64,000 bases of DNA from Tissierellales bacterium (GCA_035301805.1 DATGTQ010000079.1:3672-67671), one strand, 5' to 3'; counted from the first letter of the stretch, positions 59,076 through 64,000 are shown. Notes: generated by a model from the letters alone, not told the origin. Made by a program: numbers and translations.

Positions 59076-59336
59076 CTATCTTGGTTCAACAAGGAACTTT
59101 ATTGCTGTCCTTTCTTCTCCTTCAATTTCAATGTCAGTAAAAGCTGGTATACAAATTAAATCCATACCACTTGGTGCTACAAAACCTCTAGAAATAGCAA
59201 TAGCTTTAACAGCCTGATTAATTGCACCTGCACCGATTGCCTGAATCTCCGCATTCCCTTTTTCTCTTAAGACTCCAGCTAATGCTCCTGCAACAGAATT
59301 TGGACTTGATTTTGCTGATACTTTTAATACATCCAT
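59076..59336 (-). CDS. spoVS: Stage V sporulation protein S
   Basis: 86 aa. MDVLKVSAKSSPNSVAGALAGVLREKGNAEIQAIGAGAINQAVKAIAI is nearly invariant SpoVS sequence. Confidence 0.93.
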   Translation of the reverse strand: MDVLKVSAKSSPNSVAGALAGVLREKGNAEIQAIGAGAINQAVKAIAISRGFVAPSGMDLICIPAFTDIEIEGEERTAIKFLVEPR

Positions 59337-59444: not shown

Positions 59445-60977
59445 CTATTTTGCATATTCTATTGCTCTTGTTTCTCTTATAACATTAATCTTAATTTGTC
59501 CAGGGTAATCTAGCTCCTGCTCAATTTTTTTTACGACTTCTCTTGCAATATGAGTAATGTAATCATCACTTATTTCATCAGGTTTTACCATTATTCTTAA
59601 TTCACGACCAGCTTGTATAGCATAAGATTTTTCTATTCCCTCAAAGGAACTGGCTATATCCTCAAGCTTTTCAAGCCTCTTTATATATGTTTCTAAGGTT
59701 TCCCTTCTTGCACCAGGTCTTGCAGCTGATATAGCATCTGCTGCTTGTACTAATACAGCCTCTACTGTTTGAGGCTCAACATCTCCATGATGAGCTGCTA
59801 TTGCATGAAGGACTTCTTTAGACTCTTTATACCTTTTTGCAAAATCTACACCAATAGTAACATGAGGACCTTCAATTTCGTGATCCACAGCCTTACCTAT
59901 ATCATGTAATAATCCCGCTCTCTTTGCAACCTTAATATCCACACCTAACTCTGCAGCCATAGTTCCTGCAAGATGGGCTACCTCTATGGAATGCCTTAAT
60001 ACATTTTGGCCGTAACTACTTCTGTACTTTAATCTTCCTAATAATTTCATTAGTTCAGGATGAAGATTGTGTACTCCCACATCAAAGGCAGCTTGTTCGC
60101 CTTCTTCTTTTATAATAACATCTACTTCTTTCTTGGCCTTTTCAACCATTTCTTCAATTCTAGCTGGATGGATTCTTCCATCTGCTATTAGTTTTTCCAA
60201 TGCAATTCTAGCAACTTCTCTTCTAATTGGATCAAAACCTGATAATACTACAGCTTCTGGAGTATCATCGATTATTAAATCTATTCCTGTTAATGTCTCT
60301 AATGTTCTAATATTCCTACCTTCTCTACCTATTATACGCCCTTTCATTTCATCATTAGGTAAAGGTACCACTGTTACCGTAGTATCAGCTACGTGATCAG
60401 CAGCACATTTTTGAATTGCACAAGAAATAATTTTCCTTGCCCGCTTTTCAGCTTCTTCTTTAGCCTTACTTTCATGTTCTTTTATCATAATGGCAGATTC
60501 ATGAACTATTTCTTTCTTAACATCATTTAATAGTGTTTCTTTTGCTTCATCAGTAGTGAGTCCTGACAACCTTTCTAACTCATCTACTTGTTTTTCATAA
60601 AGCTTACCAATTTCATGTTCCTTTTCTTCTAAACGCTTTGTTCTTTTAGTTAGAAGTTCTTCTTTTCTATCAAAGTTTTCACTTTTTCTATCAATAACTT
60701 CTTCCTTATTAACAAGCCGACGCTCTAATCTTTGAAGTTCAGTTCTTCTTTCTCTATTTTCTTTCTCTATTTCAGTTCTCATTTTATGAACTTCCTCCTT
60801 GGCTTCAAGGAGTAGTTCCTTCTTATGAGATTCACCATCCCTCTTAGCATCGTCAAGAATCTTTTCAGCTAATAATTCAGCATTACCAATTTTTCCTTCA
60901 CCAATGGTTTTCCTTATATAATATCCAATGACAATTCCTATTATAACACTTATAATAACAGCTATTAAAAGTTCAAT
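59445..60977 (-). CDS. rny: Ribonuclease Y, with N-terminal membrane anchor requiring a non-canonical start
   Basis: KH domain ([15 protein letters not shown]) and HD domain (LLHDIGKA). The track starts at ATG 60782, but the frame is open to 60995 and encodes [47 protein letters not shown], the conserved Rny TM and coiled coil. SD GGGAGG lies 9 nt before ATT 60977. Confidence 0.85.
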
Positions 60978-61056
60978 AACAAAGCACCTCCCTTTCTATT
61001 TAATTTTCAAGTTCCATTACACATTTTCAAATATAATTCAATCCAATAAAAATATA

Positions 61057-61075
61057 AACCGAGGTATCTCGGCCT
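61057..61075 (-). promoter_or_regulatory. Terminator-like hairpin in the rny leader
   Basis: The minus strand reads GGCCGAG-ATAC-CTCGGTT followed by TATATTTTTA. It lies between the promoter (61121-61149) and the rny SD. Confidence 0.4.
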
Positions 61076-61120
61076 ATAGTGATTTAACTATCTTGATTTG
61101 AACAGCCAGCATACGCTTTA

Positions 61121-61149
61121 ATTTTATTACTTTTAGTCAATTCTGTCAA
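61121..61149 (-). promoter_or_regulatory. rny promoter
   Basis: On the minus strand: TTGACA (61149-61144), 17-nt spacer, TAAAAT (61126-61121). Confidence 0.5.
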
Positions 61150-61156
61150 GTTTTTT

Positions 61157-61825
61157 TCACAAGTTAAAAGTCAACTTTTCTACAATACTCTCTGTTCCTT
61201 TTAACTCTACCTTATATGCATTTGTACCAATGGCTGATAGGTGATTATTGTGTGTTACCATAATAATTTGCCTATTAAACATTTCTGAAGTTTTCTTTAA
61301 AAAATTAGCAACATTAAAAATATATTCTTCACTTACATGTTTTGCTGGCTCATCTAATATTAAAGGACCTTCAATAAAAGGTCTATGAATTTGGAGAAAT
61401 GATATTCTTAAAGCTAAGGATACAATATCAACAACTCCCCCACCCCTAGACTCAGTAGGTTTAGTTTTAATTTCTTCTCCGTCAACATTGGTTATTACAT
61501 AGAATTCAGCGTTTTGTTTTTTATAAGCTTCGTTTATTTCGATTTTAAACTGAGTATTATTTTCAAAAATATACTCTAAACAATTAGTAACAAGATTTTC
61601 TACCTGAACTTTCGCTTGTTCACGAGCAAATTGGGAAGTTTTTTGTAGTAAAATATTAACCTGTTCTAGTAGTTCCTGTTGCTTTTCAATTGAAGCTATT
61701 TTTTCATTGTTTTCCTTAAGCTGTTCAATAATTTTTTCCCTTTTACCACTTTCTTTTGCATAATACTGTTTTAATAAATCTAAGTAACTTTTTAACTCAT
61801 CATATTCGGTCATGACATTTATCAC
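61157..61825 (-). CDS. Rad50/SbcC-like ATPase, C-terminal head fragment
   Basis: 222 aa. About 75 aa of coiled coil, then signature-like SRGGGVVDIVSLALRISF, Walker B/D-loop PLILDEPAKHV and H-loop MVTHN. The GTG start overlaps the upstream stop (GTGA). Confidence 0.7.
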   Translation of the reverse strand: MINVMTEYDELKSYLDLLKQYYAKESGKREKIIEQLKENNEKIASIEKQQELLEQVNILLQKTSQFAREQAKVQVENLVTNCLEYIFENNTQFKIEINEAYKKQNAEFYVITNVDGEEIKTKPTESRGGGVVDIVSLALRISFLQIHRPFIEGPLILDEPAKHVSEEYIFNVANFLKKTSEMFNRQIIMVTHNNHLSAIGTNAYKVELKGTESIVEKLTFNL

Positions 61826-62073
61826 ATCTTTTCTAATATATCTCTTGGTAATAATTCATTTGCATCTTTAAATAAATTATTAATTTCATTTTCCAATTTT
61901 TCTATTTCCATATCTAAATCTTCGGGATTTACCCCTAATTCTTTTAATTCCTTAATTATTTTTTCCTTTTCTTGAGTAAGTTGTTCGAGTCGCACTTCAG
62001 CTTTATATTTTAATGTCTTAGCCCTTTCTAAATTTTGCTTTAAATTATTAAGTTCCTTTTCATAATCTGCCAA
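61822..62073 (-). CDS. 83-aa coiled-coil protein (descending-arm fragment of the split Rad50-like ATPase)
   Basis: Heptad-rich throughout (LNNLKQNLERAKTLKYKAEVRLEQLTQEKEKIIKELKEL...). TTG start 7 nt after a perfect AAGGAGG that contains the upstream TAA. Confidence 0.55.
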   Translation of the reverse strand: MADYEKELNNLKQNLERAKTLKYKAEVRLEQLTQEKEKIIKELKELGVNPEDLDMEIEKLENEINNLFKDANELLPRDILEKM

Positions 62074-62085
62074 TTTGAAACCTCC

Positions 62086-63528
62086 TTACCTATAATTATC
62101 AATAATATTATTAATAGTGCTGCTGTGTATTTTACTAAAACATAATGGACAAACTTCCAGTTCTAATAATAGTTTTTTATACTCCTCCAACAGCTTTTGA
62201 GTTTGTAACTCTTCTTTTTTAATTTTATTTTTAGATATATTTATTTCTTTAATATTTTCATCATATTTCTCCTTAATTGAAATTAGTTTATGTTTCTTAA
62301 CTATCAAGTCATTAATTTCATTAGTAAACTTCTCAGCAGTATTTACATTAGATAATTTTTCTAAATAAAAATTACCAAAAACTATTCTCTTATTAGAATC
62401 TCCTAAAGAAGTATTTAATTTAATTAATTTATTTAACTTATTATTAAATTTTTCTAAATTCTTAATGTTTTCATCTATTTTATCAGTATGCGTTAATTTT
62501 TTTATTATATTTAAGTTTTTATCATAGTAGCTATTTACTTTTTTATAGTCTTTATTAATATCTAATAGGTTAGTAAATATTTCCTTTTTCTGTTCCAATA
62601 GTTTATAAACAGCTTGAGTTTCCTCTAGATTTGTTAATTTATTTATGATGTGAGAATTGTATTTAATATTTTTATCTAAATCCTTTAATATATTATAGTT
62701 ATTGACTATTAAAGTATAGGATTTAATTCTATATTCTAGGTTTTCTTTATATATTTCTATCTTGTTAATATTATCTAATTTAGAAATTACTTTATTTATC
62801 TTATAGAATTCTTCCATTGTAACTTTTAACTCTGTATTTAATTTTTTTAACTTCTCTATCTTTTCCTTTTTTTCCTTCACTTCTAATAAAAGCTTATCTA
62901 TTTCATTAATATCTTTTTCAAGTCTATCTAAATAATCATATTTCTTTAAATCTTCATTTAAGCTTTCTTGAAAATTAATTAAATTTCTTCTAGAAGAATT
63001 TAAATTAATTATTTCTTTAACTGTATCCCTAATAGCATTATCTATTATATGGACACCCACTAAGCGGCCTATAGCATTGGCTCTTACAGCTTTACTCTCA
63101 GACAATAGAAAAGGGCCCTCTAATTGTTCACTAATATTTACAGAGTTAGTTTCCGAAGTATCAAGATGAATTTTTCTAATATTAATTTTCTCTTTTATTT
63201 CAAGAGGAACAGTATTTCCAAAACCTTGATATATAGTTTCATTTCCTTCAGAATCATAATATAGGTATAAATTTTTACTATTACTTCTATATCTCTTTAC
63301 TTTAGTATTGTCACTAAATATTATAGTAACACTACATTTATTTTCTCCTTCTCTAATGAAGAAATCTCCAGATGGCTCATTAAATAGAGCCCATTTTATT
63401 CCCCTGATAATGGCACTTTTCCCCTGATCAGATGGACCCACTATAACATTTAAATGTTCATCAAATTCTAATTCACTATATTTATGTGATTGAAAATTTT
63501 CTAAAACTACCTTCTCAATATATTTCAT
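62086..63528 (-). CDS. Rad50/SbcC-like ATPase, N-terminal head + ascending coiled coil + zinc hook
   Basis: 480 aa. LENFQSHKYSELEF...VIVGPSDQGKSAI (Walker A), about 300 aa of K/E/L/N-rich coil, then a CPLC hook motif 17 aa from the C-terminus. Confidence 0.75.
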   Translation of the reverse strand: MKYIEKVVLENFQSHKYSELEFDEHLNVIVGPSDQGKSAIIRGIKWALFNEPSGDFFIREGENKCSVTIIFSDNTKVKRYRSNSKNLYLYYDSEGNETIYQGFGNTVPLEIKEKINIRKIHLDTSETNSVNISEQLEGPFLLSESKAVRANAIGRLVGVHIIDNAIRDTVKEIINLNSSRRNLINFQESLNEDLKKYDYLDRLEKDINEIDKLLLEVKEKKEKIEKLKKLNTELKVTMEEFYKINKVISKLDNINKIEIYKENLEYRIKSYTLIVNNYNILKDLDKNIKYNSHIINKLTNLEETQAVYKLLEQKKEIFTNLLDINKDYKKVNSYYDKNLNIIKKLTHTDKIDENIKNLEKFNNKLNKLIKLNTSLGDSNKRIVFGNFYLEKLSNVNTAEKFTNEINDLIVKKHKLISIKEKYDENIKEINISKNKIKKEELQTQKLLEEYKKLLLELEVCPLCFSKIHSSTINNIIDNYR

Positions 63529-63529
63529 C

Positions 63530-63999
63530 TTAATTTTGCTCCCTTACTATTTTCATTTGTGATGATGCTATTCTATTTAAGGCTTCCTCTTTAACAGTAG
63601 GGCTAACTCCTTCACTATCAGAAATATCTAATAAAATTTGATTTATATCTAATTTTTCAAAATTTACAGCTGCATCTATTGATTGTTTAAACTCAAATAG
63701 TTTTTCATTTTTAAAGATAGTGCTTTCTATTTCTTTTCTGTCTAAAACTTTTTCTCCAGCTAAAGCCACTTTTAATGGTATTAACTCAATTTTTATTCCA
63801 TCCTTTATTTCTATTAAAACAGCCTTAGGAATTCGTTCAATTTCCTTTAAACTATTAGTAATTCGTACTAAACTACCTGGATTTATAAAAAACTTATTTT
63901 CCATTTCTAAAGCTCCAAAACCAGTATGGTAATGGCCAGCCAAGGTTATATCTGCATATGTGTCTTTTATATCATCAATTAATGTATAAGGAATACCTT
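63530..63999 (-). CDS. SbcD/Mre11-like metallophosphoesterase, C-terminal part (5' end outside window)
   Basis: The frame is open to the window edge (...GIPYTLIDDIKDTYADITLAGHYHTGFG). The GHYH motif is typical of calcineurin-like nuclease subunits. The stop lies 1 nt before the next ATG. Confidence 0.75.
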   Translation of the reverse strand, partial: GIPYTLIDDIKDTYADITLAGHYHTGFGALEMENKFFINPGSLVRITNSLKEIERIPKAVLIEIKDGIKIELIPLKVALAGEKVLDRKEIESTIFKNEKLFEFKQSIDAAVNFEKLDINQILLDISDSEGVSPTVKEEALNRIASSQMKIVREQN

Positions 64000-64000
64000 T

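Follow-up and report, generated by a model that had tools for sequence, protein, structure and literature searches.

The locus described here raises the question of whether an ATPase of the Rad50/SbcC kind can be maintained as three separately translated proteins, or whether such an arrangement marks a broken gene. It lies in a 64,000-nucleotide (nt) stretch of DNA from a Tissierellales bacterium (GCA_035301805.1 DATGTQ010000079.1:3672-67671), referred to below as the window, where four consecutive open reading frames (ORFs) were called on the minus strand at positions 61157-64000: the 3' part of an SbcD-like gene followed by ORFs of 480, 83, and 222 amino acids (aa), which we call the N-half, S, and the C-half. 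The gene rny lies directly downstream, and spoVS and a PHP-domain gene come after it. A sequence-only reading of the window had described a Mre11/Rad50-like operon whose ATPase is divided among three ORFs, and the ORFs, junctions, motifs, and position of rny that it listed were all confirmed by ORF calling and motif location. As a general claim, separate from any particular arrangement of the arms, it appears likely that these genes encode a real, functional, and conserved split SbcCD-like machine. The ORFs, together with the junction between N-half and S, are the following.

63530..64000, minus strand: SbcD/Mre11-like metallophosphoesterase gene, 3' part (155 codons), running past the end of the window
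62086..63528, minus strand: N-half, 480 aa from ATG, comprising the N-lobe, neck helix, repeat arm, zinc-hook motif, and a 17-aa stub
62082..62088, minus strand: AAGGAGG, the Shine-Dalgarno sequence of S, holding the TAA stop of the N-half (62086-62088)
61822..62073, minus strand: S, 83 aa, with a TTG start
61157..61825, minus strand: C-half, 222 aa from GTG (218 aa from an ATG at 61813), comprising a ~75-aa N-terminal helix and then the C-lobe

The junctions between these genes are tight. One nt separates the stop of the SbcD-like gene from the ATG of the N-half, the TAA of the N-half falls inside AAGGAGG with the TTG of S 7 nt further on, and the TGA of S overlaps the GTG of the C-half (GTGA). 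For the C-half, both the GTG and the ATG at codon 5 are possible starts; the NCBI annotation (P0002) uses the ATG, giving 218 aa, and the GTG-initiated N terminus, MINV, aligns with the MINS N termini of homologues. The three ORFs had been called translationally coupled, a description that fits the S-to-C-half junction; S has a strong Shine-Dalgarno sequence of its own. Its predicted duplex with the 3' end of the 16S ribosomal RNA amounts to -12.8 kcal/mol in the window. The mean duplex was -10.1 kcal/mol for S, -4.7 for the N-half, and -3.4 for the C-half, and a duplex of -8 kcal/mol or stronger was present for S in 30 of 38 loci, compared with two for the N-half and none for the C-half.

The split was found throughout the cellular relatives compared. 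In 40 of 40 genome loci the gene order was cinA, recA, a metallophosphoesterase gene of ~328 aa, and ORFs of ~480, ~82, and ~218 aa, followed by rny; the hosts, represented by species-level genomes, were Tissierellales genera together with Fonticella, Caloramator, Anaerosphaera, and Urinicoccus. A second chromosomal context (L045) places the cassette between genes for a major facilitator superfamily transporter and an S-adenosylmethionine (AdoMet) decarboxylase. Homologues were grouped into clusters at 90% identity, of which the best 120 were considered for each of the three proteins. The C-half had 1896 homologues, the best 120 spanning 193-243 aa and nearly all of them 215-222 aa; the N-half had 640, the best 120 being 479-490 aa save for three shorter or partial proteins (315, 394, and 479 aa); and S had 368, the best 120 being 81-99 aa. 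A HMMER search with the C-half against 1.84 billion cluster representatives (50% identity) gave 3018 hits, the best 150 of which were, with few exceptions, stand-alone proteins of ~205-260 aa at identities down to 30%. The same three-ORF split thus recurs in the related genomes compared, though the spacing and frame of the junctions vary: the gap between N-half and S ranged from -23 to +17 nt, with all three relative frames represented.

The same parts also occur in phages. In the PHROGs database the N-half matched phrog_16465 (491 positions, annotated as exonuclease; E value 7.6e-67), the C-half matched phrog_15167 (211 positions, ATPase; E 6.6e-61), and S matched phrog_18563 (77 positions, function unknown; E 3e-7). 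The Bacillus cereus prophage phBC6A51 encodes BC1852 (518 aa, annotated as SbcC), BC1853, BC1854 (77 aa, a homologue of S), BC1855 (211 aa), BC1856, and BC1857 (annotated as SbcD). In Bacillus phage 0305phi8-36 (L044), gp8 (A7KV18) consists of the nuclease fused before the N-half and is the top viral fold match of the N-half, gp7 corresponds to S, and gp5 corresponds to the C-half. Among 44 IMG/VR contigs related to BC1855, every complete locus had the N-half, S, the C-half, and the nuclease. S was found in 43 of the 44, which is every one whose sequence covers the stretch upstream of the C-half, and without exception its gene directly precedes that of the C-half, even where inserts part it from the N-half. 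The gap between N-half and S, which begins just past the hook, was an insertion hot spot in phages (L067:5179-5751, L071:4310-4834, L075:4151-4675, L079:1988-4325). The inserts included ORFs of 174-193 aa with sub-threshold AP2 and HNH_3 matches, resembling homing endonucleases, and an apparently interrupted C5 cytosine methylase, and they may be relevant to the origin of the split or to its use.

In every arm-bearing relative found, the three ATPase genes are separate, a jumbo-phage form that has no S gene being the sole exception. A homologue with an uninterrupted arm was not found among the best 120 clusters per protein, the best 150 C-half representatives, the 40 genomes, or the 44 viral contigs. 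It is exceedingly improbable that the arrangement reflects a broken SbcC-like gene, an assembly error, or ORFs that are rejoined by programmed readthrough or frameshifting. In the window itself, N-half and S do share one frame, with the TAA and four codons between them, as would be expected if readthrough occurred, but this is accidental, since other genomes differ in frame; with gaps in all three frames, readthrough or frameshifting is not the conserved mechanism. Against decay, 40 independent genomes and the complete loci on the viral contigs have the same three ORFs, the breaks are common to all relatives, and all three genes are under purifying selection, with pairwise ratios of nonsynonymous to synonymous substitution (dN/dS) of 0.08-0.18 for the N-half, 0.03-0.23 for S, and 0.02-0.10 for the C-half. 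Conserved recoding signals were likewise not found in the searches made. The sequence-only reading had argued for a genuine split, and close relatives with a single uninterrupted ORF, which it had named as a refuting result, were sought without success. On the sequence evidence, the split has long been kept in both Clostridia and phages.

The motifs of a Rad50-type ATPase are distributed over the N-half and C-half as follows.

63415..63438, minus strand: Walker A motif, GPSDQGKS, N-half residues 31-38
63109..63132, minus strand: Q-loop region, SEQLEGPF, containing Q135 of the N-half
62140..62151, minus strand: zinc-hook motif, CPLC, N-half residues 460-463, 17 aa before the end of the chain
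61427..61450, minus strand: ABC (ATP-binding cassette) signature, SRGGGVVD, C-half residues 126-133
61346..61363, minus strand: Walker B motif, LILDEP, C-half residues 155-160, followed by the D-loop
61247..61258, minus strand: H-loop, VTHN, C-half residues 190-193

Across 118 homologues of the N-half, Walker A positions G31, S33, D34, G36, and K37, Q-loop region positions Q135, L136, F140, and L141, and hook positions C460, P461, and C463 were invariant, and CP(L/T)C was present in all phage homologues. The aspartate and glutamate of Walker B and the histidine of the H-loop were invariant in 47 diverse homologues of the C-half. In Pfam and NCBIfam the N-half matched AAA_23 (E 1.3e-17) and the N-terminal half of Rad50 profiles, and the C-half aligned to the C-terminal 190 positions of Rad50/RecN profiles, for Rad50_Sulf to positions 679-869 of 872. 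The AlphaFold2 (AF2) model of the N-half had a mean predicted local distance difference test score (pLDDT) of 81 and a predicted template modelling score (pTM) of 0.31, and its N-lobe was aligned by Foldseek on the archaeal Rad50 heads 3auy and 1f2u with a probability of 1.00. Chains of the Pyrococcus furiosus Rad50 catalytic domain were the closest solved sequences to both halves, the C-segment 3qkr_B being the closest to the C-half. The N-lobe motifs, the C-lobe motifs, and, at motif level only, the CxxC hook of Rad50/SbcC proteins are thus present, and the lobes and an antiparallel coil are not in one polypeptide. The fragment of the SbcD-like protein encoded in the window gave weak Metallophos_2 and YfcE matches only (Pfam, NCBIfam). 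A full-length orthologue (L006:3281-4264, 327 aa) matched Metallophos with an E value of 1.6e-17, and its best solved relatives were the Mre11 proteins of Thermotoga maritima and P. furiosus. A predicted phosphoesterase similar to Mre11/SbcD therefore adjoins the ATPase genes, in the position of a partner nuclease.

Several natural fusions were found among the relatives. In gp8, L041, and L048 the nuclease and the N-half form one chain, and in coil-less mini forms of 325-368 aa (P0336, P0388, P0389) the N-lobe is joined directly to the C-half, without an arm, hook, or S gene. One of these mini forms (P0336; L042:958-3025) lies beside a gene for a 319-aa phosphoesterase and has addB-addA after it. 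Such fusions, of nuclease to N-half and of N-lobe to C-half, support a physical association of the parts. The jumbo-phage-type variant is found on two 213-kb phage-like contigs (L048 and L049). In L048 (2684-5669) a 771-aa protein consists of the nuclease, an N-half with two repeats, the hook, and a 138-aa post-hook tail, and the C-half gene follows directly. This tail holds EFGVDITQFE, similar to the loop of S described below, and was considered as a fused S; the resemblance was confined to the motif, and the similarity to S was not significant by hidden Markov model (HMM) score. On another contig (L047:537-1506), a homologue of S and a C-half were encoded together with ParA/ParB, NurA, and a TopoVI-A/Spo11-like gene, the upstream part being cut off; this contig may be a plasmid or an archaeal-type element.

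The part of the N-half that connects the N-lobe to the hook was found to be built of repeats.

62929..63048, minus strand: neck helix R0, residues 161-200, leaving the N-lobe (AF2 helix 161-195)
62224..62928, minus strand: arm of five exact tandem 47-residue repeats, R1-R5 (residues 201-247, 248-294, 295-341, 342-388, and 389-435)

The sequence-only reading had an ascending coil of ~290 aa; this length stands, but the arm is not a plain coil, being five 47-residue repeats whose number varies between lineages. When profiles of the repeats, made from the 118 homologues, were aligned with one another by hhalign, they matched position 1 to 1 with probabilities of 87-97% (34% for R1-R2) and E values from 4e-4 down to 5e-11. 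Control segments (helices 161-196 and 437-480, S, and the C-half helix) gave probabilities below 10% against each repeat, which rules out generic coiled-coil composition as the cause of the signal. The helix breaks in the AF2 model of the N-half (196-198, 252-253, 299-300, and 346-347) and a dip in confidence at 390-400 correspond to repeat boundaries. An L-x-x-L-(S/T/D)-N-like motif opens each repeat, and the hydrophobic positions are identical in each repeat at about one per helical turn, a pattern which by sequence forms a single seam; 47 residues amount to about 13 turns of undistorted helix. Autocorrelation was strongest at an offset of 47 (z scores of 5-9) in six of seven lineages tested, among them phBC6A51, 0305phi8-36, L041, and L045, and L048 gave a weak peak at an offset of 48 (z 2.9). 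No tandem repeat was found in the arm at the DNA level, and the shared pattern is therefore old and maintained at the protein level.

The arm changes in length by whole repeats. Among ~80 distinct N-halves, distances from Walker A to the CxxC motif fell into classes of 288, 382-389, 422-437, and 473-481 residues, corresponding to 2, 4, 5, and 6 repeats. No intermediate distances occurred, and the sizes of S and the C-half did not change from class to class. The chain ends shortly after the hook, as had been noted for the window, and this is true of nearly the whole family, with a post-hook tail of 5-25 aa in all but one of these N-halves, that of the jumbo-phage variant. The inequality of the ascending and descending arms is also real: the candidates for a descending strand are segments of 17, 83, and ~75 aa, compared with an ascending arm of ~290 aa, and their lengths do not follow the number of repeats. 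In 38 genomes with complete N-halves, mean pairwise identity was 64.6% for the N-lobe, 60% for the hook, 46.5% for R0, and 21-27% for each repeat (22-29% for R5 and R6a), so that the arm as a whole, at 25%, is conserved far less than S. The low pTM of the N-half model and its very large root-mean-square deviation in Foldseek suggest that the modelled chain is extended. Its helix breaks could also be read as a zig-zag bundle, which is unlikely since arms differ by single repeats.

Two stretches of S stand out by their conservation.

61990..62022, minus strand: AKTLKYKAEVR, residues 18-28, the most conserved stretch of S
61915..61938, minus strand: LGVNPEDL, residues 46-53, the loop of S, with G47, P50, and L53 invariant or nearly so

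The sequence-only reading had taken the 83-aa ORF to be pure coiled coil. This view was not upheld: the AF2 model (pLDDT 83) is a helix-loop-helix with helices at 2-45, 50-74, and 77-82 and a loop at 46-49, conservation is at the level of the lobes, and the size of S, 77-97 aa, is the same whatever the number of repeats. S was found in 40 of 40 genomes at 42-77% identity. Mean pairwise identity in the 38 genomes was 63.6% for S, compared with 68.4% for the C-lobe and 44% for the N-terminal helix of the C-half. In an independent set of 17 phage loci S reached 55% and the lobes 59% and 63%, against 24.5% for the arm. Residues A18, K22, A25, E26, P50, E56, I57, L60, and P76 were at least 90% conserved in 62 cellular and phage S proteins, and the loop G-(V/L)-x-P-x-x-L and a C-terminal (L/I)-P were universal. 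By this evidence S is an obligatory-looking, conserved subunit and not a passive coil fragment.

Foldseek gave no fold matches to the S model, the S profile matched only generic or designed coiled coils among PDB sequences apart from a weak match to a CT398-like hairpin protein, and no Pfam family for S was present in the copy of Pfam searched. The precomputed annotation of three S homologues (P0391, P0399, P0503) includes PF27863.1, which may be a recent entry for the S family. Two possible origins of S were considered. Descent from an arm repeat or from the C-half helix was rejected, as hhalign gave probabilities below 10%. An origin as a detached Rad50-binding helix-loop-helix of Mre11 is not supported, as the SbcD-like protein retains a conserved C-terminal helical region of its own, and in phage forms this region is fused straight to the N-half.

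The four genes would together encode one DNA-end-processing complex of the SbcCD/Mre11-Rad50 type, with a head made from two separately translated halves and a small third subunit. The N-half and C-half would form a normal Rad50-like head, as expected from the P. furiosus Rad50 catalytic domains, which were solved as separate N and C chains. This head would bind the adjacent SbcD-like nuclease near the neck, and two such units would dimerise through sandwiched ATP and through zinc common to two CPLC hooks. The position between recA and rny and the mini form beside addBA point to processing of DNA ends and hairpins for recombinational repair; the complex would cleave or resect these for RecA-dependent repair, and in phages it would serve recombination and replication.

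How the arms are arranged is a separate matter, on which our best guess is a tentative one. S and the N-terminal helix of the C-half would pack against R0 and the beginning of R1, at the foot of the arm, and form a conserved bundle beside the heads, and the distal repeats, from R1 or R2 to R5, would pair with the same repeats of a second N-half as a parallel two-stranded rod clamped by the hook at its tip. Such an arrangement would account for a chain that can stop immediately past the hook and for arms that gain or lose whole repeats while S and the C-half stay as they are. It also fits the adjacency of S and C-half, the conservation gradient, in which R0 and the C-half helix are moderately and the repeats poorly conserved, and the single hydrophobic seam. 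Some points weigh against this arrangement or against the functional assignment as a whole. The placement of S at the neck is drawn entirely from conservation gradients and gene adjacency, the strong Shine-Dalgarno sequence of S and the exactness of the repeats fit one copy of S per repeat at least as well, and to our knowledge an intermolecular parallel arm has no precedent in Rad50 or SbcC. The nuclease gene is only partly contained in the window. Curated NCBIfam equivalog cut-offs for Rad50/SbcC, 700-1087 bits, were missed by the N-half (best score 55) and the C-half (best 37), and the phosphoesterase orthologue missed those for SbcD/Mre11. With scores so far below the cut-offs, the biochemical activity is one predicted from distant homology and context, and the family is best filed as a distinct variant of the Rad50/SbcC kind and not as SbcC proper.

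The copy-per-repeat arrangement, in which S supplies the descending strand in trans to a single-helix arm, is the unlikely but most pointed alternative. N-half, S, and C-half would then stand at 1:n:1 and not at the 1:1:1 of a simple heterotrimer, with five S per N-half here and four or six in other lineages, and arm length would be set by repeat number. This would account for repeats with an exact, position-specific pattern kept in register across all of them, for an arm quantised in whole repeats beside an S of constant size whose helix A (44 residues) is about as long as one repeat, and for an S far more conserved than any repeat, as expected of a hub that fits several diverging partners. 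The lack of a DNA-level repeat argues that the pattern does not come from recent gene conversion. The ribosome-binding site of S, by far the strongest in the operon in most loci, would also suit this arrangement, but small ORFs often have strong Shine-Dalgarno sequences anyway. Moreover, S always neighbours the C-half and not the N-half, it has no profile similarity marking a repeat-binding register, and the two-repeat L048 has a single fused tail in place of S copies. We regard as quite unlikely the arrangement implicit in the sequence-only reading, where one S forms the hook-proximal part of the descending coil after the 17-aa stub, the C-half helix forms the head-proximal part, and the middle of the arm is unpaired or folded back. 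The gene order N-half, S, C-half follows this path, stub and S together (~100 aa) are about as long as the last AF2 helix (348-456), and the hook is well conserved; yet the would-be partners of S, R5 and R6a, are poorly conserved compared with S itself, the phage post-hook stub can be as short as 5 aa, phage inserts often part the N-half from S, which stays with the C-half, and arms that change by single repeats speak against a zig-zag fold-back. The L048 tail, which lies in the same chain after the hook and contains FGVDITQFE, also speaks for it, though the similarity to S is not significant.

A different kind of alternative concerns the role of the cassette and not its shape. It might be mainly a mobile, phage-derived or anti-phage module, the chromosomal copy between recA and rny being a domesticated phage recombination module. 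We judge this improbable. The same four parts do occur in Bacillus prophages, jumbo phages, and at least 44 IMG/VR contigs, and the unrelated chromosomal context of L045 would also suit a mobile element, but the recA-rny position is fixed over several families of Clostridia, phage genes do not flank it, and a pattern scan of viral contigs with the C-half of the window gave no viral relative. PADLOC gave weak, partial matches to LmuB, PtuA, GajA, AriA, mad3, and PbeC, the best being to part of the LmuB profile (E 7e-12); these extend little beyond the P-loop or generic ABC segments, and a defence effector to act as partner was absent. The neighbours are cinA, recA, rny, and spoVS, not those of the anti-phage SMC-like (structural maintenance of chromosomes) systems Lamassu, Gabija, Septu, PARIS, mads, and Pbe. 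Lamassu has been reported to be SbcCD-derived (PMC12663957). LmuB/LmuC, PtuA, GajA, and other SMC-like defence ATPases have Rad50/SbcC-derived ABC domains and coiled coils, in some cases together with a CxxC hook and small accessory proteins. They are, however, single chains that act with effectors such as Cap4 and Sir2, in contrast to the Mre11-like phosphoesterase partner and recA-rny context seen here.

Compared with well-characterised relatives, bacterial SbcCD (SbcC of Escherichia coli, 1048 aa, with SbcD) and Mre11-Rad50 as known from archaea (P. furiosus, Methanocaldococcus jannaschii) and from T. maritima, the split family has similar ABC lobe motifs, a helical arm ending in a CxxC hook, and an adjacent calcineurin-type nuclease gene, and its best sequence and fold matches lie there. 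SbcC and Rad50 are single chains with an intramolecular antiparallel coil of matched strands, whereas here the chain ends just past the hook, the C-lobe is separate, a conserved third subunit is added, and the 47-residue repeats vary in number without compensation elsewhere. In recombinant two-chain Rad50 (1F2T/1F2U, 1II8, 3QKR/3QKS) the N and C segments form one head as separate chains, as proposed here, which shows that a head can assemble without a covalent connection through the arm. Those chains were truncated by design and lack the hook and most of the arm, in contrast to a split that is natural and ancient and comes with a long arm, hook, and third protein. Fusions of Mre11 and Rad50, including gp8 of 0305phi8-36, have been described, with the Rad50 ATPase segment of gp8 reported as "not observed" (PMC3175470, Yoshida, Claverie, Ogata 2011). 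The missing segment is encoded two genes downstream, as gp5, and gp8 belongs to the split family; the split itself was not described there. In Aeromonas phage Aeh1, nrdA has been fragmented by a mobile element (PMC3045599). The likeness to this case lies in a single-chain enzyme encoded as separate, reassembling ORFs and in the inserts between N-half and S in phage members, but the nrdA split is recent and lineage-specific, whereas the present one is common to distant cellular and viral lineages, with inserts that are variable and are absent in the chromosomal copies. A published description of the split was not found in the accessible literature, and a naturally three-piece Rad50-like ATPase has apparently gone undescribed so far.

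The DNA between the C-half and rny has features of its own.

61121-61149, minus strand: promoter-like TTGACA-17 nt-TAAAAT, with 11 of 12 consensus matches, just past the C-half stop
61053-61078, minus strand: terminator-like hairpin of 11 bp with a T-run, upstream of rny
59445-60977, minus strand: rny, if it starts at AUU (Shine-Dalgarno/ATT region 60972-60992)

Since the promoter-like site precedes the terminator-like hairpin, the pair points to an attenuator in the leader of rny and not to a simple terminator of the operon. The rny leader matched no Rfam family. The conserved N-terminal membrane helix of RNase Y is encoded upstream of the first ATG (60782), and no ATG, GTG, or TTG occurs back to the previous in-frame stop. 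A Shine-Dalgarno sequence (GGGAGGTG) lies 7 nt before an in-frame ATT of rny, and GGAGGTG-7 nt-ATT was present in ~25 of 38 related loci, with Anaerosphaera and Urinicoccus using ATG. Given the lack of a usual start codon upstream and the conserved spacing of Shine-Dalgarno and ATT, rny probably starts at AUU in this clade, which is reminiscent of infC, a gene with an AUU start. Downstream of rny, two tandem spoVS-like ORFs of 86 aa were present in L003, L009, and L012, and a single copy was present in the window (59076-59336).

How the arms of Rad50 and SMC proteins signal between hook and head, and whether arm continuity and length matter, are standing questions. If the genes described here encode merely a split SbcCD of ordinary function, they would be a useful but modest addition. 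The family is nonetheless a natural experiment on these questions, with a two-chain head, a chain that stops at the hook, a third protein, and 47-residue modules in whole numbers in bacteria and phages. Were S to pair with each repeat, this would be a new way of building an SMC-like arm, and a natural system for altering strand continuity and arm length one module at a time. Reconstitution of the complex, if achieved, would make it testable which strand contacts ATP-driven control of the nuclease requires. For annotation, thousands of entries now listed as "ATPase", "AAA family ATPase", or "hypothetical protein" would be brought together as parts of one SbcCD-like machine.

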